This document shows positions 7,927 through 32,752 of a stretch of 64,000 nucleotides of DNA, one piece after another; position 1 is the stretch's first letter, and each line of letters opens with the position of its first letter. Source of the stretch: an uncultured Ardenticatenaceae bacterium (lineage in GTDB: Bacteria; Chloroflexota; Anaerolineae; Promineifilales; Promineifilaceae); the NCBI GenBank assembly GCA_964422535.1, contig CAYRBP010000010.1, positions 791-64,790 of the forward strand. Direction: 5' to 3'. A program made the position numbers and the translations under genes. Below the pieces are notes generated by a model. That model was not told the DNA's origin and did no database searches. It worked only from the letters and a program-made list of their open reading frames with translations.

Positions 7927-10341
7927 ATGAGTGAAGTGACGATGCAGGGGTACTGCTTCAAGTGCAAGGAGAAGCGCCCCATTGACAGCCCGGCGGCCGA
8001 ATGGGCCGCCAACGGTACCCCAGGGACCCGGGGCAAGTGCCCCGTCTGTGGTGGTACGATCTACAAGGCCGGCTATACACCGGCGCATGAAGGACTGCCC
8101 AAGCCAGAGGTGACGGCCAAGCCGAAGCGCCGGAAGAAGGGCGACGAGAGTGGCGGCCCGCGAAAGGGCAAGCTGGTCGTGGTCGAATCGCCGGCCAAGG
8201 CGAAGACGATCGGCCGCTATCTTGGCAAGGACTACGTTGTCAAGCCCAGCCTCGGCCATGTGCGCGATCTGCTCAAGTCCCGCCTGAGCGTGGACGTCGA
8301 GCAGAATTACGAGCCGGAGTATCGCGTCCCGAAGGAGAAGCGGGCCATCGTCAAGGAGTTGAAGCAGGCCGCGGCAAAGGCGGACCAGATCTTCCTGGCC
8401 ACGGACCCGGACCGCGAAGGTGAAGCCATCGCCTGGCACGTGCTGGAAGCGGCCGAGATGGACCCGGCCCGTACGCAGCGCGTCGTCTTCCAGGAGATCA
8501 CCAAGCCGGCTATCCTGGCGGCATTTGAGAACCCGCGTGACATCGACATGCAGCGCGTCGAGGCGCAGCAGGCCCGGCGCGTCCTGGACCGCCTTGTGGG
8601 CTACAACCTGAGCCCGCTCCTGTGGCGAAAAGTGCGCGGCCGCCTGTCGGCCGGGCGCGTGCAGTCCGTGGCGCTGCGCCTCGTCGTCGAGCGCGAGCGC
8701 GAGATCGAAGCGTTTCAGAGCGTTGAGTACTGGAGCATCGACGCCGAGTTGAGCCAGGTCATCCACCGGGACGGCGGCAAAAAGAACGGCGTGGAGCGGC
8801 CGTTTTTCGTCGCCCACCTGCACAAGATCAACGGCGGCGAGCCCGAACTCGGCAGCGAAGAGCAGGTGCGGCCGCATGTCGAGGCCCTCGAGCGGGCGGA
8901 CTACCAGGTCGGAGAGGTGAAGCTGGGCGAGCGCCTGCGGCGGCCGGCCGCGCCGTTCACGACGAGCACGCTCCAGCAGGACGCCTCGCGCCGGCTGGGG
9001 ATGGGCACGAGCAAGACGATGCGCGTGGCCCAGGACCTGTATGAGGGCATTGACATCGGCAACGGCGAGGGCAACATCGGCCTGATCACCTACATGCGCA
9101 CCGACAGCGTCACCGTCTCGACGCTGGCGCAGGAGCAGGCGCGCGACTTCATCCTGGGGCGTTACGGGGCCGACTATCTGCCGGAGAAGCCGCCGGTCTA
9201 CAAGACGAAGTCGAAGACGGCCCAGGAGGCCCACGAAGCCATCCGGCCGACGGACGTCAACCGGACGCCGGCCGTCATGAAGCAGTACCTCAATCGCGAC
9301 CAGTACCGCGTCTACCGGCTGGTGTGGGAACGCTTTGTCGCCAGCCAGATGATGCCGGCCGTCTACGACACGGTCGCGGCCGAGATCTGGGCGGGGGATT
9401 CGGCGCTGGCCGTGAAAGACCGGCCATATCTGTTTCGGGCCAGCGGTTCGACATTGCGTTTCCCCGGCTTCCTGGCCGCCTACGAAGGCGACGACGCACC
9501 TGAAGAAGAGAACGGCGATGCCAATGGTCTGACGGCCGTCCCGTCCAGCCTCCGGAAGGGAGAGGCGCTTGATCTGCTGCGCCTGCTGCCGGAACAGCAC
9601 TTCACCCAGCCGCCGCCGCGGTACTCCGAGGCGACGCTGGTCAAAGCGCTGGAGGAGAACGGCGTCGGCCGACCCAGCACCTACGCCATGATCATCTCGA
9701 CGATCCAGGCCCGCGGATATGTCGAGATCGACCAGAGGCGCTTGCGGCCGACGGAGATCGGCATGATCGTCAGCGACATGCTGGTCGAGTACTTCCCGGA
9801 TGTGCTATCGGTCGACTTCACCGCTCGGATGGAAGACGAACTGGATGAGATCGCGGAGGGCAAGCCCTGGGTGCCGGTCATTGACGACTTCTACAGGCAC
9901 TTCTCGGTCGAGTTGGGGGTTGCCGATGAAGCGATCCCGAAGCTGGACCTGAAGCGCGAGCCGGAGCTCGTTGGCCGCGACTGCCCGCTCAGCGGGCACC
10001 CGCTGGTGTTCCGCGATGGCCGGTTCGGGCGTTTCATCGGATGCAGCGACTTCCCGCGTTGCCGCTACACGGAGCAGGTGCTCAAGAAGGTCGATGTTAT
10101 ATGCCCGAACTGCGGCGGAGACCTGATTGAGAAGCGCACGCGCAAGGGACGCGTCTTCTACGGCTGTTCCAACTATCCGGAATGCGATTGGACGAATTGG
10201 AAACGGCCGGTTGCCCTGCCCTGTCCGGTCTGCAGCGGGGTCATGGTGCAGGAAAACAAGAGCACGCTGAAGTGCACGAAGTGCGAGCACACCGAATCGG
10301 CCGAGCTGCTGGAAGTGGAAGTCGAGGCGGTGATAGAGTAG
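7927..10341 (+). CDS. topA: DNA topoisomerase I
   Basis: 804 aa. It has the Toprim motifs VVVESPAKAKTIGRYLG and DPDREGEAIAWH, and the active-site Tyr region GLITYMRTDS. There are three C-terminal CxxC...CxxC zinc ribbons plus an additional N-terminal 4-Cys ribbon. Confidence 0.95.
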   Translation: MSEVTMQGYCFKCKEKRPIDSPAAEWAANGTPGTRGKCPVCGGTIYKAGYTPAHEGLPKPEVTAKPKRRKKGDESGGPRKGKLVVVESPAKAKTIGRYLGKDYVVKPSLGHVRDLLKSRLSVDVEQNYEPEYRVPKEKRAIVKELKQAAAKADQIFLATDPDREGEAIAWHVLEAAEMDPARTQRVVFQEITKPAILAAFENPRDIDMQRVEAQQARRVLDRLVGYNLSPLLWRKVRGRLSAGRVQSVALRLVVEREREIEAFQSVEYWSIDAELSQVIHRDGGKKNGVERPFFVAHLHKINGGEPELGSEEQVRPHVEALERADYQVGEVKLGERLRRPAAPFTTSTLQQDASRRLGMGTSKTMRVAQDLYEGIDIGNGEGNIGLITYMRTDSVTVSTLAQEQARDFILGRYGADYLPEKPPVYKTKSKTAQEAHEAIRPTDVNRTPAVMKQYLNRDQYRVYRLVWERFVASQMMPAVYDTVAAEIWAGDSALAVKDRPYLFRASGSTLRFPGFLAAYEGDDAPEEENGDANGLTAVPSSLRKGEALDLLRLLPEQHFTQPPPRYSEATLVKALEENGVGRPSTYAMIISTIQARGYVEIDQRRLRPTEIGMIVSDMLVEYFPDVLSVDFTARMEDELDEIAEGKPWVPVIDDFYRHFSVELGVADEAIPKLDLKREPELVGRDCPLSGHPLVFRDGRFGRFIGCSDFPRCRYTEQVLKKVDVICPNCGGDLIEKRTRKGRVFYGCSNYPECDWTNWKRPVALPCPVCSGVMVQENKSTLKCTKCEHTESAELLEVEVEAVIE

Positions 10342-10368: not shown

Positions 10369-10995
10369 TCAGAAAACAAGGCCGAGCGCGCGAAGTTCGG
10401 CCGCCAGATCGGTGTTCTGGGTGAACCGGATCGCCTGCATGCCCAACGCCTGGGCGGCAGCCACGTTGGCCGGGGCGTCGTCGATGAAGACGGCCTGGTC
10501 CGGCTTCCGTCCCAGGCGTTGAAGCGTGTTCCGGTAGATGCGCGGGTCGGGTTTCATGATCCCTTCGGCCGCGGAGCCGACGATGAGGTCGAAGTCGGCG
10601 GCGATTGGATGGTCCGTGGTCAGGCTCCGGAGCAGGGCGTCGGTGGCGTTGCTGATGATGGCCGTCTGGTAACGCGGCCGCAGCGAGCGGATCAGCGCGA
10701 CGAGGGTTTCATCGAGCCGGTCGCCGACCCAGAAGTCGCGCCGGAAGTCGGCGAACGCATCGCCGAGGTCGACCTGCTGCTCGATCCATGACCACAGCGC
10801 GTCGTTCGTCACCTCTCCACGCTGGGCAGCCTGGCCCATTGCGCTGTGGAAGACGAGCTCGTCGGCGCCGCCCGGTCCTAGGCCGAGGCGTTCCTCCCAC
10901 GCGGCGCGCGGGCCGCGATCGAAAGTTCGGACCAGGACGCCGCCGACATCGAAAATGACGGCCCGGATGTGGCTGTCGGCCCCCGCCTCACTCAT
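10369..10995 (-). CDS. HAD-superfamily hydrolase (subfamily IA-like)
   Basis: 208 aa with motif I VIFDVGGVL, motif II ISNA, and motif III/IV K....FIDD. Its start overlaps the stop of the upstream 913-aa gene by 8 nt. Confidence 0.8.
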   Translation of the reverse strand: MSEAGADSHIRAVIFDVGGVLVRTFDRGPRAAWEERLGLGPGGADELVFHSAMGQAAQRGEVTNDALWSWIEQQVDLGDAFADFRRDFWVGDRLDETLVALIRSLRPRYQTAIISNATDALLRSLTTDHPIAADFDLIVGSAAEGIMKPDPRIYRNTLQRLGRKPDQAVFIDDAPANVAAAQALGMQAIRFTQNTDLAAELRALGLVF

Positions 10996-13729
10996 CGAGC
11001 AGCACCACCGGCTCCTGGTAGTAACGCAGCCGACTGCGCGAGAGCTTGCTCACCAGGAACTCGTTGAACCAGGCGCGTTTGTCAGCCAGTGGCTCGTCGG
11101 CTTTCAGGCGGGCCAGGTCGGCGTTCAGGCGCAGGATGCGCCCGGGGATGACGAAACGGGTCAGGCCGGCCGGCAGCAAGTTCCCGCCGGCCGCGGCATC
11201 GAACACCTCTTCCGGGCTGAACTGCGGATAGATGGCGACGGCAACCAGATCGGGGAAGATGTCGGTCAACCGGTCCAGGTCCGTCAGCAACGTGCGTTCG
11301 ACGCTGCCCCAGGCGTTGTAGGTGTCGACCACCGCATTCATGACCGGCAGCTCCGGCGCGCCCGGCGCGTGGCGGGCGAGCAGGTAGCGGCCGTCTCTGA
11401 TCTGGAAGTAGCAGATGGTCTCTGGCCGGTGCAGCGCTTCACGGGCATGGTCGGCCGATACCTCTTCGAGCAGGAGATTCGGAATCGGCCGCAGGTTGGC
11501 GATCAGCGACTCCGCGTCTTCACCGCCGCCGTGTTCCCGGTCGACGGAAATGGCATGGTACCAGGTGTGGAGCTGGAACTCCGATTGGTCGGCCTGGACA
11601 ACCTGGACGATAGCATACGGGTAGCCCAGTTGCTGTAACGCGCTGTAACGTGTCGCGCCGTCGAGGATGACGTAGCGACCCTTCCAGTAGGTCGTGATGG
11701 GCGGGTTGACGAGCCGTCCGTCGTCCTCTAACCGGCCCATTAGCCGGGCGACACGCTTCTGATCAATGTGCTCGTGGGGCATGACCTGTTCGACCGGGAC
11801 GACTTCCAGCGCCAGCACCTCGTTGGCCCGGCGGGATTGAAGCGCCTCCAGCATCTGCCGGACGACCTGGAGCGAGGCGTCGCGCTGCTGGTTGTCGATC
11901 ACGGCGGTCACGTGTGGCTCGACGATGACGCGCGGGTGCTCCCGGAGGCGCATGGCCGCCGGCGAAGCAGGGACGACGAGGGGCGGCAGGGCGGAGACGG
12001 CCGCGCCGGCGATCGTTCCGGCTTCCAGCGCCGCCAGCAGCGCTCGCTCGTCGACCAGGTCGGTATGGCCGGTGTTGATCAGCAAGGCCCCCGGCTTCAT
12101 GACCTGCAGCTCGCCCTCGCCGATGATCGTCTCCGTCTCGGCCCGGAAGGGGACGTGGAGGCTGATGAAGTCGGAGCGGCGCAGGAGGTCAACGAGGTCG
12201 ACGACCTCAACGCCGTCAGCCAGGGCCAGCTCGGGCGTCAGGCGCGGCTGGTTGGCAAGCACGCGCATATCGAAGGCGATGGCGCGCCGGGCGACCAGCC
12301 GGCCGATCACGCCGAAGCCGACAAGACCGAGCGTCTTGCCCGCCAGCCGGCCGTCGCCGTAGCGGGTGGCCAGCGTCAGCATGCGGCTGACCGTGTGCTC
12401 CGCAATGGCCACGGCGCGGGTGTTGGGCGCGGCCACCACTTCGATGCCGAGCGCCCGCGCCATGCTGACATCAATGTGGTCCAGGCGTTCGCCCAGCAGC
12501 CCGATGGCGCGGAGATGGTTGCCGTACTTCAGAACGTGGCTGGAGATGCGCTGGCCGGCCCCAACGATGAGGCCGTGGGCGTCGCCGATTCGGCGCATCA
12601 GGGCCTCTTCATCGAGCGTGTCAACCGCCTCAATGTCTGCCGCCGCCCCCAATTCCTCCATCGCTTCGGTTACAAGCGGCGTCATCAACAGGACCCTGGG
12701 CCGCTCATCAGCTTTCCTGGCTGTGGGCGGCGATGGCCGGGAATCCGCGTCGCTTTCCCGCGCCGGTGTGGAATGCGGTTTGTGGTGAAAGAAGCCGCAG
12801 GACGCGACGTCAACGTTTCCGCCGCTTAGCAGCACGCCGACGCGCTTGCCCCTGGCTGCGTGGTAACTTCCGCTGAAAAGCGGGGCCAGGGCAACGGCCG
12901 CGCTCGGCTCAATGACGATCTTGAGCCGGGACCAGACGAACTCCAGCGCGGCCAGGATGTCATCCTCGGCGACCGTGGTCATGTCACCGACGAACCGGCG
13001 CATGATCTCCAGGTTCCGCTGGCCGACCGCCCGCGTGCGCAGGCCGTCGGCGATCGTGTCGGGGACGCGCTCCAGTTTCGCGATCCTGCCCTCTCGCCAC
13101 GACTGGTTGGCGTCTGCCCCTCGGGCCGGTTCGACACCGACGACGATACAGGCCGGCGCGCTGGCCTGGGCCGCCAATGCGCTGCCGCTGATCAATCCAC
13201 CGCCGCCGACCGGCACAAACAGATAGTCGAGCGGGCCCACTTCGTCGAAGAGCTCCAGCGCGGCCGTGCCCTGACCGGCAATGATGTCGTCATTGTCGAA
13301 CGGGTGCACCAGTGTGTAACCGTGCTCGGCGATCAGCGTCGCGGTTACTTCCTCGCGGTGAAGGGCATCACACGGGACGATCCGCGCCCCGTACCCTTCC
13401 GTCGCGGCGCGTTTGTTGGGCGGCGCGTCCTCCGGTATGACGACGACCGCCGGCACGCCGAGTAAGCTCGCCGCGAGGGCGATACCCTGGGCGTGATTGC
13501 CGCTGGAGTGGGTGATGACGCCGGCGGCACGCTCTGCGTCGCTGAGCCGGCTGATGGCGTTATAGGCGCCGCGGAACTTGAAAGCGCCGACGCGCTGGAA
13601 GTTCTCGCACTTGAGGAAGACGTGGCAGCCGGCCACTTCGTCGAGCGTGCGCGAGGTCAGCACCGGCGTGCGATGGGCCACACTATGGAGGCGCTCGGCC
13701 GCATCAAGGATTGCACTGGGCGGGATCAT
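10988..13729 (-). CDS. three-domain fusion: fold-type II PLP Ser/Thr dehydratase/racemase-like + D-2-hydroxyacid dehydrogenase (SerA-like) + ParB/Srx-fold SerK/SbnI-like domain
   Basis: This is a single uninterrupted 913-aa ORF.
- aa 1-315: GAFKFRGAYN (PLP lysine), HSSGNHAQG and PVGGGGLISG.
- aa 320-345: a Pro/Ser/Arg linker.
- aa 345-630: the NAD motif GLVGFGVIGRLVARR and a C-terminal VEPHV.
- aa 640-913: a ParB/Srx-like stretch HEHIDQKRVARLMGRLEDDGRLVNPPITTYWKGRYVILDGATRYSALQQLGYPYAIVQVV, followed by a ~200-aa C-terminal domain. Confidence 0.8.
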   Translation of the reverse strand: MIPPSAILDAAERLHSVAHRTPVLTSRTLDEVAGCHVFLKCENFQRVGAFKFRGAYNAISRLSDAERAAGVITHSSGNHAQGIALAASLLGVPAVVVIPEDAPPNKRAATEGYGARIVPCDALHREEVTATLIAEHGYTLVHPFDNDDIIAGQGTAALELFDEVGPLDYLFVPVGGGGLISGSALAAQASAPACIVVGVEPARGADANQSWREGRIAKLERVPDTIADGLRTRAVGQRNLEIMRRFVGDMTTVAEDDILAALEFVWSRLKIVIEPSAAVALAPLFSGSYHAARGKRVGVLLSGGNVDVASCGFFHHKPHSTPARESDADSRPSPPTARKADERPRVLLMTPLVTEAMEELGAAADIEAVDTLDEEALMRRIGDAHGLIVGAGQRISSHVLKYGNHLRAIGLLGERLDHIDVSMARALGIEVVAAPNTRAVAIAEHTVSRMLTLATRYGDGRLAGKTLGLVGFGVIGRLVARRAIAFDMRVLANQPRLTPELALADGVEVVDLVDLLRRSDFISLHVPFRAETETIIGEGELQVMKPGALLINTGHTDLVDERALLAALEAGTIAGAAVSALPPLVVPASPAAMRLREHPRVIVEPHVTAVIDNQQRDASLQVVRQMLEALQSRRANEVLALEVVPVEQVMPHEHIDQKRVARLMGRLEDDGRLVNPPITTYWKGRYVILDGATRYSALQQLGYPYAIVQVVQADQSEFQLHTWYHAISVDREHGGGEDAESLIANLRPIPNLLLEEVSADHAREALHRPETICYFQIRDGRYLLARHAPGAPELPVMNAVVDTYNAWGSVERTLLTDLDRLTDIFPDLVAVAIYPQFSPEEVFDAAAGGNLLPAGLTRFVIPGRILRLNADLARLKADEPLADKRAWFNEFLVSKLSRSRLRYYQEPVVLLDE

Positions 13730-14097: not shown

Positions 14098-14168
14098 GCA
14101 GGGCTTTCTCCTGTTACCGGGGTGACGTGCCGGCGATCTTACGCCGAATGGGTGTACGGGGCAAGCGG

Positions 14169-14921
14169 TCAGCCATCCTGGACGGAGGGCCAGACAGCCG
14201 ACACCAGCTCGGGCAGCCACACACCCGCCGGTTCCCTCACACAGATGTCCATCGCCTGACTCAACGGGGTCTCCGTCGGATTGACCTCGACCGACATGGC
14301 GCCTGCTTCGATGGCCATCAAGGGCAGCGACGCCGCGGGCTGAACAAGCCCCGATGTGCCGACGGTCAGGAAGACATCGGCCTGTTCGGCGGCCGAGATG
14401 GCAGCCTGCAGCGCGTCGGGCGGCAGCATCTCGCCGAACCAGACGACGTCAGGTCGGAGGAACGCGCCGCAATCGGGGCAGCGCGGAGGGACTTCCGGGC
14501 CGTCCGGCCACGATTCGACGATCCGGCCGTCGGCCGAGCACTTGACCCGGGCCAGGTTGCCGTGAAGCTCAATGATGTTCCGGCTGCCGGCGCGGGTGTG
14601 CAGGCTATCGACGTTCTGTGTGACGAGGGTGAACTGAGGTACCCGGGTTTCAAGCGTCGCCAGGGCGACATGACCCGGATTGGGCGAAGCGCCGGCGACC
14701 AGTTCCCGCCGCCACGCGTACCAGTCCCAGACCAGTTTCGGGTCGCGCCGGAAGGCCTGCGGCGTGGCCAACTCCTGCGGGTCGTATCTGGCCCACAGGC
14801 CGGTCAGCGCGTCGCGGAACGTCGGCACGCCGCTCTCGGCGGAGATGCCCGCGCCGGTCAGCACGACGACGCGCCTGGCCTCTCGCAGCCGGGCGATGAG
14901 CCGGCCCGGGATGGGGCTCAT
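14169..14921 (-). CDS. cobB: NAD-dependent protein deacylase (Sir2/CobB sirtuin)
   Basis: It has VVVLTGAGISAESGVPTFRD, QNVDSLH, a Zn-binding CxxC...CxxC (CSADG..CPDCG) and GTSGLVQPA. Its start overlaps the panC stop (ATGA). Confidence 0.9.
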   Translation of the reverse strand: MSPIPGRLIARLREARRVVVLTGAGISAESGVPTFRDALTGLWARYDPQELATPQAFRRDPKLVWDWYAWRRELVAGASPNPGHVALATLETRVPQFTLVTQNVDSLHTRAGSRNIIELHGNLARVKCSADGRIVESWPDGPEVPPRCPDCGAFLRPDVVWFGEMLPPDALQAAISAAEQADVFLTVGTSGLVQPAASLPLMAIEAGAMSVEVNPTETPLSQAMDICVREPAGVWLPELVSAVWPSVQDG

Positions 14922-15775
14922 CCGGCTTCGCTGCCCTCCAGCAGGATGTTGTCGATCAACCGCGTCGTGCCGAAATAGACAGCCATCGACAGGAGCGCCG
15001 AGGGGACGGGAGCCCCGCCGTCCAGTTCCCTGAGCGTCACGGGGTCAGCCGCACTGACGTAGTCGACGCGCGCGAGCGGTTCGGCGGCCAGGACACGGCT
15101 CAGTGCCTCGCGCAGCCGGTCCGGGTCGTGTTCGCCCGCTTCCCACATCTCGCGGGCGGCTGACAGGGCGCGATAAAGCGCCGCTGCGCCGGCGCGATTG
15201 GCGTCATCCAGGTACTTGTTGCGCGAGCTCATCGCCAGGCCGTCGGGTTCGCGCACGGTCGGGCACACGACGAAGCGCAGGTTGAAGTTCAGGTCAGCGA
15301 CCATCCGGCGCAGGACGGCCGCCTGCTGGGCGTCCTTCTGGCCGAAGTAGACGTGGGTCGGCTGCACGATGTTGAAGAGCTTGGCCACGATTGTCGCCAC
15401 ACCCTGGAAGTGGCCGGGCCGCCGGGCGCCTTCCAGTCCCTCGGCCACGGCGCCGACATGGACGTAGGTCTGGAAACCCGGCGGGTACATGGCGGCATCG
15501 GAAGGGGTGAAGACAAGGTCGACCGATTCGGCCGCCAGCAGGGCCAGGTCGCGCTCCAGGTCGCGCGGGTAGCGCGAGAGATCTTCTGTCGGCGCGAACT
15601 GGGCCGGGTTAACGTAGATGGAGACGGCGACGAAGGACGTTTCACTTTTGGCCCGGCGGACCAGCGAAAGGTGACCCTCATGCAGATAGCCCATCGTCGG
15701 TACGAAGCCGACGCTCGCCAAACCCCAGCCTGCGCGGACCCCGCGCACCTGTTCGATGTCATCCGTAACGATCAT
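14918..15775 (-). CDS. panC: pantoate--beta-alanine ligase
   Basis: Starting from the internal ATG at 15775 (GGGAG RBS) gives MIVTDDIEQVR...VPTMGYLHEGHLSLV (HIGH motif) and a 285-aa product. The upstream 87 codons of the track ORF are Arg/Pro/Gly junk. Confidence 0.92.
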   Translation of the reverse strand: MIVTDDIEQVRGVRAGWGLASVGFVPTMGYLHEGHLSLVRRAKSETSFVAVSIYVNPAQFAPTEDLSRYPRDLERDLALLAAESVDLVFTPSDAAMYPPGFQTYVHVGAVAEGLEGARRPGHFQGVATIVAKLFNIVQPTHVYFGQKDAQQAAVLRRMVADLNFNLRFVVCPTVREPDGLAMSSRNKYLDDANRAGAAALYRALSAAREMWEAGEHDPDRLREALSRVLAAEPLARVDYVSAADPVTLRELDGGAPVPSALLSMAVYFGTTRLIDNILLEGSEAG

Positions 15776-20100: not shown

Positions 20101-21897
20101 CTACCGGGTCAGGACAGGGAGGTTGCCGATCCCGGTGTTGAAGTTCATGTAGAAGGCGCTCATCCACCCCTGGCGGCCGTCGGCCAGGATGCCCTTGACC
20201 CAGGTCGAGGTAGCGTCGCGGCCGATGAGCGGGACGACCGTACCGTTGCGGATCGACGTGAATGCCGGGAAAGCCGTGCTCGGGCCGGTACGGACGTTCA
20301 GGTACGACGAGGTGACCGTTCCGGTGACGCCGGTTGAAGGCGGCGGTGGAGGCGGGGGTGTGGTCGTGCCACCGATGGGCGTCAGACTGCTGACCGGGAC
20401 TGAGGTCGTCGTGTAGCTCGCGTTCACCCAACCGGTACCGCCGTTCGGTGTCACGATCTGGATCCAGGTCGCGGCCTGGTTGCGGAAACCGGTCAATGCC
20501 ACGACCTGGCCCCGGCTAAGCTTGTAGACGACCGGGAACTCGACCCCCGGACCGGAGCGGACGTTCAGGTAGTAGGCGATGACCGTCGCCGTCCCGGGGA
20601 ACTGGCCGCCGGTGCCGCCGTCACTGACCACCTGGTAGGAGACCCGCGCCTCGGCAAGGTTGACGCGCTCGTAGTACTCGACCCGGACATTGGCTGTTCC
20701 GGCCGCCAGGTCGATCTCGCCCGTGAACGTCGCTGCCGGCCGGTCGAACCAGGCATCGATGATCATGCGGTCATTCACCCAGACCCGGACGCCGTCATCC
20801 GTCGTCGCCGAAAAACGGTAGCGCGCGTTGGAGGTGGAGATGGTGGTCGTCCAGCGGGCGGAGAAGTTGTCGGCCTGGATCTGCGGAGCCGGCGAGCCGA
20901 GGCCCCAGTTGTAGTTGATCGCCGCTTCATCACGGGTCACAACGGGAGCGCCGGCAAGGCTGGTGTTGTTGAAGTACTCGGCCCGCCAGGCGCCGGTAGG
21001 CGGGGGCGTGGTGCCGCCGCTGATGCGTACAGCCTCGAGCTTGACCTGCGCGCGCTCGGTCGCCTCGAAGTATTCCAGCCGCATGGCCGTCTGGCCGCCC
21101 GGGAGGTCGACGTCCACGACGTATGTTGTGGCGCTCTGTACCTTCCACTGGTCCAGGACCATCGTGTTGTTCACCCACAGCCGAACGCCGTCATCCGACA
21201 CGACCGTGAATCGATATTTGCCCGCCTCCAGAGTGGACGTGCGGTTCCAACGGGCGGAGAAGTTGTCCGTCTGAACGCCGGAACCAGGCGAGCCAAAACC
21301 CCAGTTGAAGTTAATGTTCGCGCTGTCGGCCACCAGAACGGGCGTGCCGGCGAGTGTGGTGTTGTTGAAGAACTCCCCGCGCCAGGCATTGGTCGGCGGC
21401 GGGGGCGGGGCCGACACGATGGCATAGCTCATCTTGGCGACAGCGCTGCCACCCGCCTCGTAGTACTGGACCTGGATGGTGTGCGTTCCGGCACCGAGAT
21501 AGACGTCGGCCGTAACCGTGCGGACCTGGCTATCGAACCACTGATCAATGATGACCGTGTTGTTGACCCAGACGCGCATGCCGTCGTCCATCGTGGCGGT
21601 GAACCGATAGGTGCCCGCCGCCAGGCTGACCGTCTGACGCCACTGCGCCGAGAAATTGTCGCTGAGGACCTGAGCGGCCGGGGAACCGCTGCCCCAGTCC
21701 CAGTTGATACTGTCTTCCTGGCGGACGAGGACCGGCTCCCCGGACAGGGTGCGGTTGTTCCAGTACTTGGCTTCCCACGGGCTGCCCTGGGCCGCCGCGC
21801 GCGATGAGCTGACACTCAGGCCGGCCAGCACAAGCACCGCCAATAAGGCAACGGACAGGTACGACTGTAGCCTGCTGTTCTCAAACCACCTTTTCAT
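20101..21897 (-). CDS. secreted protein with three tandem PA14 domains and two SH3b domains
   Basis: The ATG at 21897 has a GAAGGAG RBS 8 nt upstream. The signal peptide is MKRWFENSRLQSYLSVALLAVLVLAGLSVSSSRAAAQ. Three ~130-aa repeats follow (W..EY[WF]NN..L.G.PV......IN..WG.GSP......DNFSA.W...........YRF....DDG.R.WVN). After them come two YLNVR.GP...F modules separated by a poly-Pro linker. Confidence 0.85.
   Translation of the reverse strand: MKRWFENSRLQSYLSVALLAVLVLAGLSVSSSRAAAQGSPWEAKYWNNRTLSGEPVLVRQEDSINWDWGSGSPAAQVLSDNFSAQWRQTVSLAAGTYRFTATMDDGMRVWVNNTVIIDQWFDSQVRTVTADVYLGAGTHTIQVQYYEAGGSAVAKMSYAIVSAPPPPPTNAWRGEFFNNTTLAGTPVLVADSANINFNWGFGSPGSGVQTDNFSARWNRTSTLEAGKYRFTVVSDDGVRLWVNNTMVLDQWKVQSATTYVVDVDLPGGQTAMRLEYFEATERAQVKLEAVRISGGTTPPPTGAWRAEYFNNTSLAGAPVVTRDEAAINYNWGLGSPAPQIQADNFSARWTTTISTSNARYRFSATTDDGVRVWVNDRMIIDAWFDRPAATFTGEIDLAAGTANVRVEYYERVNLAEARVSYQVVSDGGTGGQFPGTATVIAYYLNVRSGPGVEFPVVYKLSRGQVVALTGFRNQAATWIQIVTPNGGTGWVNASYTTTSVPVSSLTPIGGTTTPPPPPPPSTGVTGTVTSSYLNVRTGPSTAFPAFTSIRNGTVVPLIGRDATSTWVKGILADGRQGWMSAFYMNFNTGIGNLPVLTR
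20626..21780 (-). repeat. three tandem intragenic PA14-domain repeats (period about 131 codons)
   Basis: The repeats cover ORF-track aa 58-179, 189-311 and 321-442. They share the motif set listed for the CDS and are joined by Pro-rich linkers (APPPPPT, GGTTPPPT). Confidence 0.75.
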
Positions 21898-22129
21898 TGA
21901 CCTGACTCCTTCGTGACAAAAGCATGCAATGGCTTGTTGGACCGGCAGCACATGCCGCCTGTCCGCGTGACGAGGCTACTTCCTAGACGACTCGCGCGGA
22001 GCCCCGCGGCAGGCCAGGCCTGCACGTGGGCCTACGCCCATCACGCGCACATGACATAAGCCATGATAGTATCCGCGTCACTCTATGTCAAGTGTGCCGG
22101 GCGGCGGGAGGCAGTCGGGCGGTTTGTTT

Positions 22130-24007
22130 TTACGCTACCCCTGGAGAATTTAACACTCGTTCGTCGCCGACACGCCTCGTAACGCGCAGCTCGTCGAGAT
22201 GCTCCAGCAGGGCGATGGCGTATTTGCGACTGGTGCCGAGCAGGTCCCGGACCGTTGCCGCGTTGATCGTCCCGTGGGCCTGAAGGTGGCCGCGGATGAT
22301 GCCAAGCAGCCGGTCATATTCGGCCGCAGCGTAGACGACCTCCTCCGATAGCGGACGCAGTTCGCCCAGATCAACCAGCGCGAAGTAGACTGACTCGCCG
22401 ACCAATGCCTTGCACTCCTTGACGCTTGGTGAATTGACGCCTTTGGCGGCCAGAAAGTTCCGCAACTGATCGATCCCGGCCTGCTGTTCAGCGGAGAATG
22501 TGATCGTGTGCGCGGGAAGCCGCAGGAGAGTGCCCTGTTCGACCAGACGACCTTCATCCTGCAACTGCGCCAGCAAGGGGGCAAAGACAGCGCCGGTGAC
22601 CTGCAGCCGGCTTCGCAGCTCCTCGCGGTCCAGACCGGCGCGCAGCGGGAAGTCCTGATGGTACGCAGCCACCAGCGCTACCGCTCGCTCCTGGAGGGCC
22701 TGCAGCGCGCCCGGGGATGCGACGAGCTTTCCCAGGGCAAGGACCTGTCCGCCCGTGACCAACCCGTCGAGTGCCTGGCGGCCCTCCTGGCTGTTGAGTC
22801 CGGCCTTTTCCAGGAGCGTCACTGCCGGGGACGGGCCAAGCCGGTTCAACGTCTCCAGAAGCAGTTCCTCCGGCGAGCCCTTCTCCAGCGCATTGAATCG
22901 GCCCAGGACATCCTCTCGGAAACGCCGGTGACGCCGGCCTGGAAGCGGGTCCAGGACGCGCCCACCCCCGAGCGTGGAGCCTGGCGAGGGTCGCCGAAGG
23001 ATGAAGCGATCGCCGCGATCGACGGCCACCGGCGCGGCCAGCGCCAGCTGGAGCCAGCCGTTCTCTCCGGGCGGGATATTGTCGCGGCCAATGACGCGGG
23101 CATGGGTGCTGACCTCAGCCGAACCCACGAATAGTTTGACCGCTTCGTTATGCTCCAGGGGGGAGTCGCTGTCCGGGAGGTGGCGGTAGGTGACATCGAT
23201 CAACTGGCTGGACCGGAGCGTGCCGGGCGCTGCGACGACCTGACCGCGGGCCACTTCCGTGTGGTCGATGCCGGTCAGGTTGACCGCCACACGGCTGCCG
23301 GGCAAAGCGACGTCGCGTTTCGTCTTGTGCGTCTGCAGACCGCGGATTCGGCCCTTCAGGCCACCCGGCTGCAGTTCGACATCGTCTCCGACGCGCAGGC
23401 GGCCGCCCGCAAGCGTTCCGGTGACGATGGTGCCGAAGCCTGGCAGGGTGAAAACCCGGTCTACCGGAAGCCGGGGGCGACCGAGGTCAACGGCCGGAGG
23501 GCACTCGCGAAGTGCCTGCAACAGCGTTTCGCGCAGGGCCGACAGGCCCTGTCCCGTTCGCGCAGAAACGGGCACGATGGGGGCTCCTGCAAGCACCGTG
23601 CCGGCCAGGACATCGCTGATCTCCAGTTCGACCAGTTCCAGCCAATCCGGATCGCTGACAAGGTCGATCTTCGTCAGGGCGACGACCCCGCGCTCGACCT
23701 GCAACAGGTCGAGGATCGCCAGATGCTCGCGTGTCTGGGGCATGACGCCCTCATCGGCCGCAATCACGAACAGGGCAAGGTCAATGCCGCCCACGCCCGC
23801 CAGCATATTCTCGATGAAGTCGCGATGGCCCGGCACATCGACCACGCCGACTTCCTGGCCGTCCAGGTTCAGCCAGGCAAAGCCCAGGTCGATGGTCATC
23901 TGCCGGGCCTTCTCTTCGGCCAGGCGGTCGGGATCGATGCCTGTCAGGGCGAGGACGAGCGTCGATTTGCCGTGGTCTACATGGCCGGCGGTGCCGATGA
24001 CGTGCAT
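22130..24007 (-). CDS. selB: selenocysteine-specific translation elongation factor SelB
   Basis: 625 aa. The G-domain reads MHVIGTAGHVDHGKSTLVLALTG, DVPGHRDF and TKIDL. The long C-terminal winged-helix extension ending ...HLDELRVTRRVGDERV is characteristic of bacterial SelB. Confidence 0.9.
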   Translation of the reverse strand: MHVIGTAGHVDHGKSTLVLALTGIDPDRLAEEKARQMTIDLGFAWLNLDGQEVGVVDVPGHRDFIENMLAGVGGIDLALFVIAADEGVMPQTREHLAILDLLQVERGVVALTKIDLVSDPDWLELVELEISDVLAGTVLAGAPIVPVSARTGQGLSALRETLLQALRECPPAVDLGRPRLPVDRVFTLPGFGTIVTGTLAGGRLRVGDDVELQPGGLKGRIRGLQTHKTKRDVALPGSRVAVNLTGIDHTEVARGQVVAAPGTLRSSQLIDVTYRHLPDSDSPLEHNEAVKLFVGSAEVSTHARVIGRDNIPPGENGWLQLALAAPVAVDRGDRFILRRPSPGSTLGGGRVLDPLPGRRHRRFREDVLGRFNALEKGSPEELLLETLNRLGPSPAVTLLEKAGLNSQEGRQALDGLVTGGQVLALGKLVASPGALQALQERAVALVAAYHQDFPLRAGLDREELRSRLQVTGAVFAPLLAQLQDEGRLVEQGTLLRLPAHTITFSAEQQAGIDQLRNFLAAKGVNSPSVKECKALVGESVYFALVDLGELRPLSEEVVYAAAEYDRLLGIIRGHLQAHGTINAATVRDLLGTSRKYAIALLEHLDELRVTRRVGDERVLNSPGVA

Positions 24008-24025
24008 GTCGAGCCGTGCCGGGAT

Positions 24026-25291
24026 CTACTCTTCGCGGACGGGCGTCAACGCCGGCTGGCGTCGCCGGTTCGGGTTCTGGTCGGCGGCCTTCTCCAGTTC
24101 GTCCATCCAGAGCAGGGGCCACTTCTTGATGGCTTCGGACTGAGCCGCGTGGAGACGGAGGATCTGGTCGCGGTCCTGCTGCAGGCGGGCGATGGCATCT
24201 TCCAGGGCCTGCAGTTGTTCCTGCAGTTGGCGCTCGCGCCGGTCAACGATACTCTGGCGCTGGATGAAGTCCGATTCGAAGTTCTTCCACTTCTTGATGT
24301 CCTCCTGGGCGAACTGCTCCCAGCGAGTCTCCATACGTTGCGATTCGACGCGGACGAGTTCCATTGCCTCGCGTTGTTGCTGTTCGAGGTGAGCTCGCAA
24401 CGACTTGAGCGTCTCCAATGCTGTCTTCGAGTCATTGAATTGCGTGTTGAACTTCACCCACTCCTGGGTGAACCGTTGGAGCGTGCTTTCGTGTTCGTCC
24501 ATCGCCCGCTGCCAGGCGGCCAGGCGCTGATTGCGCTCGTGTTCACCGATCTGTACTTGCTCCGTCCAGTCCTTGGTCGAGTCGCGAAGGCCCTGCTGGG
24601 CTTCATTGACGGCCTGTATCGCAGACTGCACCTTCAACAAGTTGTCGTTAAGGATTTCCAGCCGGTTGTTGATCGGCTCCCAGCGTTTGCTGATCTCCAA
24701 CAAGGCCGCCTGGGCCTCGGTGATGTTGCGATTGTTCAGCTTTTCGCGTTCTTCCAGGAATGCGATCGAGCGCTCGATGCTCTCGACCTGCGTGCGTACC
24801 TGAGAGGCGGCGCTGGTTTGCACGCCGATCAGATTGGCCAGGCGGCCGTCTTCAGCCTGCCTCAGCAGCAGGTCCTGTTCGAGCCGGGTGATGGCCGGGA
24901 GTTGTTTGCGGATGTCGGCGATCTCACGGGTGGTCGATTCGTGCTCCACCCGCCGGAGCCGGTCGAGTTCCTTCTCTGACTCGATCCGCCGGCGGTCGTA
25001 TTGCTCGATCATCTTGACAATGTCGTCTTTGAACTGGGCGAGCTGGATGTCGACCTGCGGGATTCGGGCGAGAGCGGACGACAGCTGGCCGACCTGTTTC
25101 TCCAATTCTGCGATACGTTGGTCGCGGCTGGTGACCTCGCGCTCCTGCAAGACACCCCGCTGCTCCACTTCAGCCAGCTTCCTGGCGACTTTGCGGCGTT
25201 CTTCGTCAAGCCAGTCAATGCGCTTGCGTAGCTCATTGAGGTCCTGGTCATGCGAACCGGCCGATGAACGGGTGTTCGAACTATTCGCCAT
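24026..25291 (-). CDS. coiled-coil-rich protein of unknown function (421 aa)
   Basis: The ATG at 25291 has a GGAGA RBS. Almost the whole protein is heptad-like and rich in E/R/Q/L/K. I saw no enzymatic motif, TM helix or signal peptide. It ends 18 nt before the selB start. Confidence 0.75.
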   Translation of the reverse strand: MANSSNTRSSAGSHDQDLNELRKRIDWLDEERRKVARKLAEVEQRGVLQEREVTSRDQRIAELEKQVGQLSSALARIPQVDIQLAQFKDDIVKMIEQYDRRRIESEKELDRLRRVEHESTTREIADIRKQLPAITRLEQDLLLRQAEDGRLANLIGVQTSAASQVRTQVESIERSIAFLEEREKLNNRNITEAQAALLEISKRWEPINNRLEILNDNLLKVQSAIQAVNEAQQGLRDSTKDWTEQVQIGEHERNQRLAAWQRAMDEHESTLQRFTQEWVKFNTQFNDSKTALETLKSLRAHLEQQQREAMELVRVESQRMETRWEQFAQEDIKKWKNFESDFIQRQSIVDRRERQLQEQLQALEDAIARLQQDRDQILRLHAAQSEAIKKWPLLWMDELEKAADQNPNRRRQPALTPVREE

Positions 25292-25377
25292 GCTGTAATC
25301 TCCTTCCGACGCATTATACTTTCCGCACGGGCTGTCCGCCACTTTGCCCGGTTGCCGCGGCGGCTTACAATGGATGG

Positions 25378-31188: not shown

Positions 31189-32752
31189 AAGAAGGAGCGG
31201 CATACGGGATTCGAACCCGTGATAACAGCTTGGGAAGCTGCTGTGATACCACTTCACCAATGCCGCACTCGTCCGAGATTATACCCACATCTTCGTTCCC
31301 GGCAAGCTTGAAGGAAGCGGGGCGGCGGGGCGGCAACGTGCGGCGCCGGGTCCCCTGACTTGACGGACGCGGCGCCGGTCTGGTTTCAGGGACCGCCACT
31401 CCCCGCGGCGTCGCGGGCTGTGAATCCGGTGGGGAGAGACGTTCAGCGGCATCCTTGGGATACGGGACGCGGGTACGAAGGCGCACTTCGAACCGGACCT
31501 GGTAGTGGACGGCCGCAGTCAGAGCCAGCAACAGCCACCAGACAAATGCGGGGCGCGCGCCGAGCGCGATGGCGTCTGCCAGGCCAAAGATCCAGCCTGC
31601 CAGCAGCGAACCGGCAAGCCCGACGGTGAGGGCATAGAGGGGATGTCCGGTCTGATGGCCCTGGCGGAGACGGTGGATCGATCGCCAGAGCAGGGAGAAT
31701 GAGACCAACCACAGCGCCAGGTAGGCGACCAGCCCGGGTATGCCCAGGTCCAGAGCTGCCTGCAACAGGTGGTTATGGGCGTGGGCGAGATCGACGTCCG
31801 GCGAAGTCAGGTAGAGCGGGTAGACCACCCCCACAACCTCGCGAAAGCTGTTGATGCCGCTCCCGGTCAGCGGGAAGTCCGACACCGCCTGCAAACCTCG
31901 CTGCCAGATCTCGATCCGGCCGGCGAGGCCCAACGCATCGCCCAGGATGTCTGTCCCGACCTGTGGGTTCCTGTAGGTGAAGAACATCACCAGGGCGCCG
32001 ACGAACAAGCTGACCGCCACGACAAACCGCCAGCGCGCTTCGACAAAGAACGCGACGACAAAGCCAAGGCCGGCCACAAAGGCGACGATGCCGCCGCGTG
32101 ACATTGTGGCCAGCAGGACGAGACTGGTCAGGATGGCGGCCGCGGCGAGAAGGACCCGGATGCCGGGTCGCCGGTCGAGGGGTCGCCACAGGCCGACCAG
32201 GCAGGCGATCATCAGCGGGGCCGTCCAGGCCAATGCGCCGGCCAGTTCATTCGCGCTCACCAATCCGCCCGTCGTTCCGGGCACTGACTGGAGTGAGGCG
32301 GGCAAGAGACCGCCCAGTTGGTTGAGCACCTCAAACGGCCCTCCCCATTCACCACCGAAAAGCCCGACAAGCGCCATCCCAACCCCGATGGCGAGCGTCG
32401 TCGCCAGGAGAACCCATAGACCACCCGGTCGCAACAGACAGAAGTTGACCGCGGCATGGAAGAGGCACATGGATAGGGCCAGGCTCACCAGCTTGGGCCA
32501 GGAGGTGCCCGGGTCAAATGTCATGAATGTCGCGAGCGCGACGGTCAGCCCGAAGGCCGCCAACGCCAGATCAAACGGCGTGGCTGGGAAGAAGCGGCCG
32601 GTGCCAAGCTTGCGGCCGATGAGAAGCGGTGGAATGACGAGCAGGGGAAGAAGCGAATCCGGCGCCAGGAACATGGCGGCGGCGAGCAGAAACAACAGGC
32701 CGAGCCATTCCCACGTTGCGAGCAACTTTGCAGGCGTTTTCAAGCGGTCCAT
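31103..32752 (-). CDS. O-antigen ligase/Wzy-like polytopic membrane protein; the 3' end of the ORF is problematic
   Basis: The ATG at 32752 gives MDRLKTPAKLLATWEWLGLLFLLAAAMF. About 10-12 hydrophobic helices follow, along with a Wzy_C-like region. The frame has no stop until 31103, so the Pro/Arg-rich tail reads through tRNA-Gly (31196-31266). It also runs 86 nt into the convergent FHA gene. The true C-terminus is uncertain. Confidence 0.6.
   Translation of the reverse strand: MDRLKTPAKLLATWEWLGLLFLLAAAMFLAPDSLLPLLVIPPLLIGRKLGTGRFFPATPFDLALAAFGLTVALATFMTFDPGTSWPKLVSLALSMCLFHAAVNFCLLRPGGLWVLLATTLAIGVGMALVGLFGGEWGGPFEVLNQLGGLLPASLQSVPGTTGGLVSANELAGALAWTAPLMIACLVGLWRPLDRRPGIRVLLAAAAILTSLVLLATMSRGGIVAFVAGLGFVVAFFVEARWRFVVAVSLFVGALVMFFTYRNPQVGTDILGDALGLAGRIEIWQRGLQAVSDFPLTGSGINSFREVVGVVYPLYLTSPDVDLAHAHNHLLQAALDLGIPGLVAYLALWLVSFSLLWRSIHRLRQGHQTGHPLYALTVGLAGSLLAGWIFGLADAIALGARPAFVWWLLLALTAAVHYQVRFEVRLRTRVPYPKDAAERLSPPDSQPATPRGVAVPETRPAPRPSSQGTRRRTLPPRRPASFKLAGNEDVGIISDECGIGEVVSQQLPKLLSRVRIPYAAPSSTLDWRRRPVRASVRPLRSSRRLRLTQS
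31196..31266 (-). tRNA. tRNA-Gly (anticodon CCC)
   Basis: The reverse complement folds as a cloverleaf:
- acceptor stem GCGGCAT/ATGCCGC;
- D-stem GTGA/TCAC;
- anticodon stem GCAGC/GCTGT with loop TTCCCAA;
- T-arm ACGGG-TTCGAAT-CCCGT;
- discriminator T.
No CCA is encoded. Total length is 71 nt. Confidence 0.9.

Follow-up and report, generated by a model that had tools for sequence, protein, structure and literature searches.

We examined a 64,000-nucleotide stretch of DNA from an uncultured Ardenticatenaceae bacterium of the Chloroflexota (contig CAYRBP010000010.1 of assembly GCA_964422535.1, positions 791 to 64,790 of the forward strand; hereafter the window), concentrating on one gene whose product joins a serine racemase-type enzyme, a relative of 3-phosphoglycerate dehydrogenase (PGDH) and a putative serine kinase. 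The open reading frame (ORF) lies on the minus strand at 10988..13729, stop codon included; it starts with ATG and runs uninterrupted for 913 codons with 0 internal stops. An earlier note, made from the letters of this DNA alone, had described a single 913-amino-acid (aa) ORF at these positions without giving its strand, and that description holds. From the N-terminus, the protein consists of a fold-type II pyridoxal phosphate (PLP) domain of the serine racemase or Ser/Thr dehydratase type (residues 1-315; 12785..13729), an interdomain linker (residues 316-343; 12701..12784), a PGDH-like 2-Hacid_dh domain with a non-canonical active site (residues 344-637; 11819..12700) and a module of the SbnI/SerK type, itself composed of an N-terminal ParB/Srx-like subdomain and a C-terminal subdomain (residues 638-913; 10991..11818). 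The motifs that the earlier note had quoted for these modules are all present: AFKFRGA (residues 49-55, with K51), SSGNHAQG (75-82) and GGGGLISG (175-182) in the PLP domain, GLVGFGVIGRLVARR (468-482) and INTGHTD (551-557) in the dehydrogenase-like domain, and HEHID...ILDGATRYSALQQLG (652-702) at the start of the C-terminal module. Downstream on the same strand, a HAD-IA hydrolase of 208 aa is encoded at 10369..10995. Its start codon, ATG, falls within the final codons of the fusion gene, and the two genes overlap by 8 nucleotides (nt) at the stop codon (ATGAGTGA), so that the coupling reported earlier is also correct.

A long ORF of this kind could be an artefact, produced when a frameshift or misassembly joins separate genes, and the earlier note had named evidence of such an error among the things that would refute it. 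In favour of an artefact, a separate PLP gene precedes a two-domain gene at 14 related loci, and some long-read assemblies are frameshifted in related genes (loci L081, L084 and L172). Against it, a search of a 5.8-billion-protein collection listed at least 120 full-length homologues (902-931 aa, 59-98% identity, 99-100% query coverage), which come from independent NCBI, ENA, JGI and Logan assemblies. A profile built from the C-terminal module was also searched against GTDB, with each species represented by a single genome; relatives of this kinase-like module were found in 323 species genomes, and the best 80 loci were fetched. All of these best 80 belong to the Chloroflexota, class Anaerolineae, and most are labelled Promineifilum, Promineifilaceae or Ardenticatenaceae, the remainder carrying broader Chloroflexota labels only. 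Architectures were counted only at loci with at least 800 nt downstream, and the intact three-domain ORF was present in 43 of the 80 fetched loci; the genome survey that had been proposed thus finds a recurrent architecture. The linker is a variable, Pro/Ser/Ala/Arg-rich stretch of 28 residues that is predicted to be disordered: the predicted local distance difference test (pLDDT) score is 33-49 over residues 316-340 in a structure prediction of the full-length protein, and in an alignment of 121 sequences its mean column conservation is 0.33, with 0 invariant columns. These properties are as expected of a genuine interdomain linker, and conservation is continuous across the domain junctions. 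Because of the many independent full-length homologues, the recurrent loci and the linker, a frameshift or chimeric assembly has virtually no probability left, and this explanation was rejected.

The PLP domain had been placed in the threonine-dehydratase/serine-racemase clade, and family and structure comparisons agree. Pfam PALP matches residues 19-303 (E=1e-75), and the closest solved relatives are serine racemases, from S. pombe (1v71, E=1.5e-92), Dictyostelium, mammals and maize; the predicted structure of the domain superposes on 1v71 in Foldseek with a template modelling (TM) score of 0.93 at 47% identity. The top NCBIfam model is threo-3-hydroxy-L-aspartate ammonia-lyase (NF005454), at 413.3 bits narrowly short of its cut-off of 452, and the domain scores 329 bits on the BhcB model. 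K51 (13577-13579), the HSSGNHAQG loop (H74-SSGNH-79, with S75-S76 at 13502-13507), E200, D206, the Gly loop GGGGLISG (175-182) and S302 are 100% conserved in the 121 sequences. The HSSGNHAQG loop carries the second catalytic Ser of the racemases, and S302 is the Ser that faces the pyridine nitrogen. E200 and D206 align to 'gvEPeagnDg' of the S. pombe racemase, in which the Asp likewise stands six residues after the Glu; from serine racemase structures, we take these two residues to be divalent-metal ligands. Since the catalytic, metal-site and PLP-binding residues are invariant, the domain looks fully active, and by homology it is probably a eukaryotic-type serine racemase/dehydratase.

The C-terminal module had been likened to the ParB/sulfiredoxin fold of the serine kinases SerK and SbnI. 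Pfam barely detects it (ParB_N, E=0.19), and a check by Pfam only would have led to the wrong rejection of this assignment, because Pfam does not recognise the module. The SbnI profile and the fold comparison are clear, however. SbnI is matched over its full length (5uje in a phmmer search of the PDB, E=1.4e-17; profile E=2.4e-25 across residues 5-273; NCBIfam SbnI model, E=2.2e-24), and SerK in the N-terminal subdomain only (profile E=3.9e-6; NCBIfam E=2e-9). An AF2 model of the module alone was predicted with a pLDDT of 86 and a predicted template modelling score (pTM) of 0.81, and its top nine Foldseek matches all belong to the SbnI/SerK family, including 1vk1, a P. furiosus homologue (E 4e-18 to 1e-14, TM 0.71-0.79, 240-286 aligned columns). 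The next matches are ten orders of magnitude weaker and cover only the 78-85-residue ParB/Srx core. The earlier assignment can therefore be extended: by profile and by fold, the module is a full two-subdomain homologue of SbnI and SerK.

The residues expected of such a kinase are intact. E653 of the PHE motif (11771-11773) aligns to E30 in 'kPHE' of SerK and to the Glu in 'lHE' of SbnI, and DGATR (D690 to R694, with D690 at 11660-11662) aligns to DGHHR and DGVHR; PDB entries 5x0e and 5x0j are the E30A and E30Q mutants of SerK. We take SerK E30, SbnI E20 (by own residue count) and SbnI D58 to be essential for catalysis or nucleotide binding. PHE and LDGATR are invariant in all relatives examined, including distant two-domain proteins and stand-alone proteins of ~275 aa, and HTWYH (721-725) and PAGLTRFVIPGRILRLN (853-869) are invariant as well. 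From homology and these intact residues, we infer that the module is a catalytically competent kinase of the SbnI/SerK type. It might instead be a non-catalytic ligand or nucleotide sensor that controls the PLP enzyme, or a DNA- or heme-binding regulator, as in the second function of SbnI, which is annotated as a bifunctional regulator. The module sits where the ASB/ACT domains of long PGDHs would be (the PGDH model is matched at positions 1-326 of 525), and ParB-fold proteins can be nucleotide-binding switches (PMC12704722). Yet the Glu of PHE and the Asp and Arg of DGxxR are invariant in every architecture, the ~275-aa stand-alone form included, the whole two-subdomain kinase fold is kept, and the PGDH-like domain that would be regulated is itself degenerate. 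We consider a sensor or regulator quite improbable.

The middle domain is related to PGDH, as had been proposed, on the evidence of Pfam (2-Hacid_dh, PF00389, and 2-Hacid_dh_C, PF02826, at residues 346-637; E=1.8e-39 for the C part), of the PGDH model TIGR01327 (179.6 bits, with a cut-off of 454; the match covers positions 1-326 of the 525 in the model and leaves out ASB/ACT) and of solved PGDHs, the top match being that of P. horikoshii (1wwk, E=5.7e-35). Active-site residues were read from the alignment to 1wwk, 1ygy and 6plf. Two departures that the earlier note had seen by eye were confirmed in this way. His takes the place of the substrate-binding, catalytic Arg (H555, 12065-12067; 'llintgHtdl' versus 'lintsRgpv' in 1wwk, or INTGHTD versus NT(S/A)RG), and the catalytic His has no Glu partner ('avsalpplvvp' versus 'gldvfeeEPlp', or SALPPLVVP versus DVFxxEP). 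Beyond what that note had described, the Asp that binds the ribose of nicotinamide adenine dinucleotide (NAD) is replaced by Gln within NQPRLTPE (493-500, 12230-12253; 'vlaNQPRl' versus 'illyDPyp'), and relative to the three solved PGDHs ~15 residues are deleted at the junction of the substrate-binding and NAD-binding parts. Of the catalytic Arg-Glu-His triad, only H606 (11912-11914) is kept.

Conservation within this domain is uneven. In the 121 sequences, 15% of its columns are invariant, versus 36% in the PLP domain and 35% in the SbnI-like module. The glycines of the GxGxxG motif (471-476; G471, G473 and G476) are 95-100% conserved, and G554-H555-T556, R596, H606 and N493-E500 are invariant in these 121 closest homologues. 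Nearly all of the invariant polar residues fall in the nucleotide-binding lobe, and the substrate-binding lobe has almost none. Among 64 genome-derived orthologues, H555 is kept in 63 and NQPRLTPE is near-universal, whereas the classical acid/base His606 is replaced in ~10. Judged by these residues, the domain is not decaying freely despite its lower constraint.

This pattern bears on the possibility that all three modules are catalytic and perform consecutive steps of an undescribed pathway, the PGDH-like domain being a rewired oxidoreductase. The new active site would then consist of H555, R596 and H606, with NADP(H) bound in the NQPR pocket; the domain would act on the product of another module, for example by reducing a 2-oxo acid or imine that the PLP dehydratase releases, as with BhcB and BhcD of the beta-hydroxyaspartate cycle, or by oxidising a phosphorylated hydroxy acid. 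The strict conservation just described, including that of the GxGxxG motif, is what such an enzyme would require. The acidic ribose ligand has been lost and an Arg stands two residues later, a combination that usually marks a preference for NADP in Rossmann folds, and the scores of the PLP domain on the BhcB and threo-3-hydroxy-L-aspartate ammonia-lyase models (329 and 413 bits) fit the same chemistry. On the other side, those ~10 of the 64 orthologues lack His606 and none has the Glu partner, the substrate-binding lobe offers hardly any invariant polar residue, and other two-domain branches have Gln/Phe or worse at the catalytic positions while keeping the kinase motifs. We know of no 2-Hacid_dh member that works without the Arg. 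On balance, a rewired oxidoreductase seems to us unlikely.

To place the fusion in its wider family, an exhaustive HMMER scan with the C-terminal module was made over 50%-identity clusters (E<=1e-3). The SbnI-like family comprises 912 cluster representatives, which are mostly stand-alone proteins of ~270-290 aa; a set of 520-605 aa combines a PGDH-like with an SbnI-like part, and the three-domain form accounts for one representative. While the 80 best-matching loci are all from Chloroflexota, a few stand-alone relatives are labelled Desulfobacterota. The two-domain form is present at 15 fetched loci. At the 14 split loci, the two-domain gene is preceded immediately, on its own strand, by a separate ~320-aa PLP gene, so that their association predates, or survives, gene fusion and fission. 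Copies of both the three-domain and the two-domain form occur in 2 genomes (L044/L073 and L045/L077).

The state of the dehydrogenase part differs greatly across this family. Three two-domain proteins (P0133, P0141 and P0155) keep all of the canonical PGDH residues (VRS, GAGLDNID, NTARGG, DVFxxEP and TPH(I/L)(G/A)AST), and P0141 reaches 375 bits against the PGDH model. In other branches, the Arg is replaced by His, Gln, Ser or worse and the catalytic His is gone (TSQGG and TPFIGA in L081 and L084, for example). PHE and LDGATR are unchanged in all branches, whatever the state of the dehydrogenase. On these sequences, the simplest history would be an ancestral fusion of SerA and SerK types whose kinase remained essential while the dehydrogenase part lost its chemistry more than once. 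A metagenome scan with the alignment of canonical PGDH-SbnI proteins, using patterns from the dehydrogenase half, returned ordinary PGDH genes, matched over residues ~11-307 only. Some neighbouring genes also bear on the function. At L090, the locus of the canonical fusion P0141, a class-V aminotransferase gene (AGXT/BhcA/serC_3-like) lies directly upstream, and a full-length aminotransferase of the same type lies directly upstream of a stand-alone homologue at L173. Another stand-alone homologue (L174) has upstream a dimethylglycine/sarcosine-dehydrogenase-like gene, of a family that belongs to glycine and one-carbon metabolism, together with electron transfer flavoprotein (ETF) genes.

A further possibility is that the SbnI-like module runs in reverse, making serine and ATP from O-phosphoserine (OPS) and ADP as a last biosynthetic step that replaces or supplements SerB, a role that has been proposed for the DUF1015 'SerBK' family; the PLP domain could then racemise or deaminate the serine. 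In its favour, the module is fused to a descendant of SerA, which catalyses the first step of the phosphorylated serine pathway; some PGDH-SbnI fusions are canonical, and one of these is encoded after a class-V aminotransferase gene; and SbnI-fold DUF1015 genes beside serA are reported to complement a missing serB (bioRxiv 10.1101/2024.10.14.618325). The reaction in this direction is, however, thermodynamically unfavourable, with an estimated equilibrium constant of 4e-4 (bioRxiv 10.1101/2024.10.14.618325), the neighbouring putative HAD phosphatase could itself be the phosphoserine phosphatase, and the dehydrogenase partner is degenerate in this lineage. A biosynthetic, reversed kinase is in our estimate rather unlikely.

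Several further features of the related loci were recorded. A GNAT acetyltransferase gene (~287 aa, cluster c1) lies directly 5' of the fusion on the same strand at 39 related loci (L001, L003, L005, L021, L028 and L030 among them), often together with a stand-alone response-regulator receiver (c3) and a Sir2 gene (c6); the window has no such GNAT gene. A functional link between this acetyltransferase and the fusion, by amino-acid N-acetylation or by acetylation control of the enzyme, is possible. At L073, L074 and L077, a paralogous PGDH-like plus SbnI-like copy stands beside an aspartate/ornithine-carbamoyltransferase-like gene and two carbamate-kinase-like genes, in some cases also beside a type-I asparaginase gene; a further neighbour resembles by eye an M20 peptidase. 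The catalytic His of these copies is replaced (TPYQ/TPYR), and L077 has no upstream PLP gene. Frameshifts split the PGDH-like plus SbnI-like gene into two or three called genes at L081 (7157-8936), L084 (7004-8759) and L172 (7425-9179), and these splits are probably sequencing errors rather than true fission. The same three loci have in common divergent genes for an EamA protein, a thiamine pyrophosphate (TPP) enzyme of the PRK08266 family and an ANKH-like protein. Across L081-L088, the recurrent ANKH-like, PRK08266, EamA and Mut7-C neighbours look like lineage synteny. A role in sulfonate or cysteate metabolism, suggested by the presumed TPP decarboxylase and by a sulfotransferase in L082, was considered and dropped, as the match of the TPP enzyme is to an acetolactate-synthase-like family that is uncharacterised, not to sulfopyruvate decarboxylase.

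The coupled hydrolase belongs to the HAD superfamily by Pfam (Hydrolase, E=4.6e-20) and exceeds the NCBIfam cut-off for HAD-IA variant 3; it resembles YihX and the N-terminal domain of soluble epoxide hydrolase (sEH). The second Asp of the DxD motif is typical of HAD phosphatases. In motif I of this protein (FDVGGV), the nucleophilic Asp is kept but not the second one, a pattern shared with the glucose-1-phosphatase-like family NF006991, to which the match is weak. At 25 of the 43 three-domain loci and 9 of the 15 two-domain loci (~59%), the same strand carries an orthologue within 5 kb downstream, and the genes that separate the two vary by locus.

This pair is flanked by housekeeping genes. 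Upstream of the fusion on the same strand are panB, panE, panC, a Sir2-family gene and a small Trm112-like ORF, with selB farther away on the pan side; on the other side, topA is convergent with the pair, and ffh, rimM and dprA lie farther out. An Rfam scan found no family near the fusion gene, its only matches in the window being an S-adenosylmethionine (SAM) riboswitch and one tRNA, and promoter-like and terminator-like sites near the gene were no more frequent than in shuffled sequence. The riboswitch (RF00162, 1337-1438, plus strand, 86 bits, E=5.7e-19) lies directly 5' of a 425-aa ORF at 1541-2818, and the tRNA-Gly (CCC) gene at 31194-31266 on the minus strand is the sole tRNA gene in the window. 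Topoisomerase I (7927-10341, plus strand) has an N-terminal DUF5679 domain and C-terminal zinc ribbons, and its neighbourhood is also found at the closest related loci (L001, L003, L005 and L011). SelB (22130-24007, minus strand; GTP_EFTU and SelB winged-helix domains) implies that the organism uses selenocysteine, and an adjoining 438-aa ORF on the same strand (24026-25342) is a candidate selA. The Sir2-family gene is the 250-aa ORF at 14169-14921 on the minus strand (E=5.9e-54); an overlapping 283-aa ORF on the plus strand (14127-14978) has no family match, and the ORF at 23150-24979 on the plus strand, which overlaps selB, is likewise spurious. Such long spurious ORFs on the opposite strand arise because of the high G+C content. 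The 616-aa product of 20101-21951 (minus strand), in which three PA14 domains are combined with two bacterial SH3 domains, is probably surface-located or secreted.

Together, these observations suggest a protein with an active serine kinase, an active racemase/dehydratase and, between them, a non-canonical PGDH-derived module that couples or regulates the two, with the HAD enzyme acting on a phosphoester of the same metabolic node. We favour this reading tentatively, at a little under even confidence. Its kinase module would interconvert L-serine and O-phospho-L-serine with an adenine nucleotide. The PLP module would interconvert D- and L-serine, or eliminate water from serine to give pyruvate, or both, and would thereby feed the kinase or compete with it for serine. 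The middle module would descend from a genuine fusion of SerA and SerK types and, in this lineage, would not be a canonical dehydrogenase. Its nucleotide-binding lobe is kept (GxGxxG, NQPRLTPE and H555), and it would most likely serve as a ligand-binding or oligomerisation scaffold that couples or regulates the active modules. The substrate of the putative HAD phosphatase is probably the phosphorylated product or a phosphoester related to it. The role of the whole would be assimilation and homeostasis of serine, possibly D-serine, through OPS. By analogy with archaeal SerK, the routes onward may be from serine through OPS and 3-phosphohydroxypyruvate to 3-phosphoglycerate, or OPS-dependent cysteine synthesis. 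Homology and gene context point to serine and O-phosphoserine chemistry, as the earlier note had proposed; the serine substrate and the non-catalytic status of the middle domain are likewise tentative assignments drawn from sequence comparison.

A number of observations count against this favoured reading. The C-terminal module misses the equivalog cut-offs of SbnI (NF033589, 86.2 versus 350 bits) and of SerK (NF053625, 36.9 versus 380); scores so far below the cut-offs indicate a distinct subfamily and not an orthologue of either, and together with 21-25% identity they mean that the phospho-acceptor could differ from serine. H555, R596 and H606, invariant among the 121 closest homologues, argue that the middle domain is specifically selected, and it might still be catalytic. 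HAD adjacency is missing in ~41% of loci, and part of what is seen may be inherited synteny. Most stand-alone homologues have neighbourhoods without an obvious link to serine. The full-length AlphaFold model has a pTM of 0.42, so that domain packing is unreliable and supports no inference on channelling between domains. Finally, unless they are regulated, kinase, dehydratase and phosphatase activities on one small pool would look futile. A different arrangement would be a self-contained and so far undescribed serine-converting machine in which every module is catalytic: the kinase would make an O-phosphoester of serine or of another beta-hydroxy amino acid, for example 3-hydroxyaspartate, the racemase/eliminase-type PLP enzyme would act on that phosphoester or on its D/L partner, the rewired PGDH-like domain (H555, R596 and H606, with an NADP-type NQPR pocket) would add a new redox step on the product and the HAD enzyme would close the cycle. 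If true, this would be a new route in metabolism and would show the 2-hydroxyacid dehydrogenase fold catalysing in a new way; we regard it as doubtful.

The earlier note knew of no characterisation of this architecture, and we too found no published description in the literature searched. A survey of ParB-fold fusions (PMC12704722) mentions no fusion with PALP or 2-Hacid_dh in its text or supplements. Database names are generic ('PLP-dependent enzyme' and 'threonine dehydratase'), and a few JGI fragments are automatically named 'L-serine kinase (ATP)/ParB family transcriptional regulator'; no module passes the curated cut-off of a characterised equivalog. The protein is a new, conserved and lineage-wide combination of modules from known superfamilies, with an apparently repurposed dehydrogenase domain. 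Its function is predicted from homology, and the chemistry may prove conventional.

To our knowledge, only two free-serine kinases have been characterised, archaeal SerK and staphylococcal SbnI. In the SbnI-like family, ties to serine enzymes recur: some members are fused to a PGDH domain, which may be canonical or degenerate, and some are fused to, or encoded next to, an enzyme of the serine racemase type. The fusion offers a concrete lead, open to testing, on free-serine kinases in bacteria and on the steps by which many bacteria add phosphate to serine or remove it from phosphoserine. In reconstructions of amino-acid pathways, serB remains one of the most frequent gaps (GapMind 2026 preprint, bioRxiv 10.1101/2024.10.14.618325). 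If the kinase is confirmed, it would give a bacterial route from serine to phosphoserine in filamentous Chloroflexota that are abundant in wastewater and soil, a natural series in which a SerA domain decays from enzyme to scaffold or sensor, and, for the first time, a physical link between serine phosphorylation and the chemistry of serine racemase. The names 'threonine dehydratase' and 'PLP-dependent enzyme' would also be corrected.

Each module can be set beside a characterised relative. With the S. pombe serine racemase 1v71 and with NF005454, the PLP domain shares the Schiff-base Lys, the two-Ser HSSGNH motif, the Glu and Asp of the Mg site, the Gly loop and the Ser facing the pyridine, but it forms the N-terminal third of a 913-aa protein and scores below the NF005454 cut-off. 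We know of no serine racemase family member in which the domain is one third of such a fusion. The middle domain has the two-lobe 2-Hacid_dh fold and the GxGxxG motif in common with short (type III) PGDH, represented by 1wwk of P. horikoshii, and differs from it in having His for Arg, no Glu, Gln for the ribose Asp, a ~15-residue deletion and a score of 180 bits against 454. The C-terminal module shares its two-subdomain fold with SbnI of S. aureus and S. pseudintermedius (5uje, 5ujd and 6nr6; Foldseek E=4e-18, TMt 0.74-0.78), which is the free L-serine kinase of staphyloferrin B biosynthesis, and the motifs (L/P)HE, DG(V/A)(H/T)R, TW(Q/Y)H and PAG(V/L)TRFxIxGRxLxL are common to both. It differs from SbnI in its 21-25% identity, in scoring 86 bits against 350, in being fused to two other domains and in its occurrence in Chloroflexota, not staphylococci; family searches of its neighbours in the window found no sbn siderophore genes near the fusion gene. 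With ADP-dependent SerK of T. kodakarensis (TK0378; 5x0b), it shares the fold (Foldseek E=9e-16, TMt 0.79) and the Glu at E30, which corresponds to E653, whereas sequence similarity is limited to the N-terminal subdomain (E=4e-6) and SerK is a stand-alone archaeal protein.

Two known arrangements resemble the fusion as a whole. DUF1015 'SerBK' proteins, which have a predicted SbnI-like fold and are encoded with serA and serC, have been proposed to interconvert serine and phosphoserine (GapMind 2026 preprint, bioRxiv 10.1101/2024.10.14.618325). Their linkage to serA and serC follows the same functional logic as the PGDH-SbnI fusion, but they are separate genes and not fusions, they occur in Clostridia and Bacteroidota, and no relationship to the fusion protein is detectable by sequence, which has no DUF1015 match in Pfam even at E up to 10. 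In Desulfurococcales, serK lies beside genes for a PGDH homologue and an aminotransferase, and SerK drives serine through OPS to 3-phosphohydroxypyruvate and 3-phosphoglycerate, or to cysteine (Makino et al., PMC5120207). The same neighbours are mirrored in the family described here by the fusion to a PGDH domain and by the aminotransferase genes next to some of its members.

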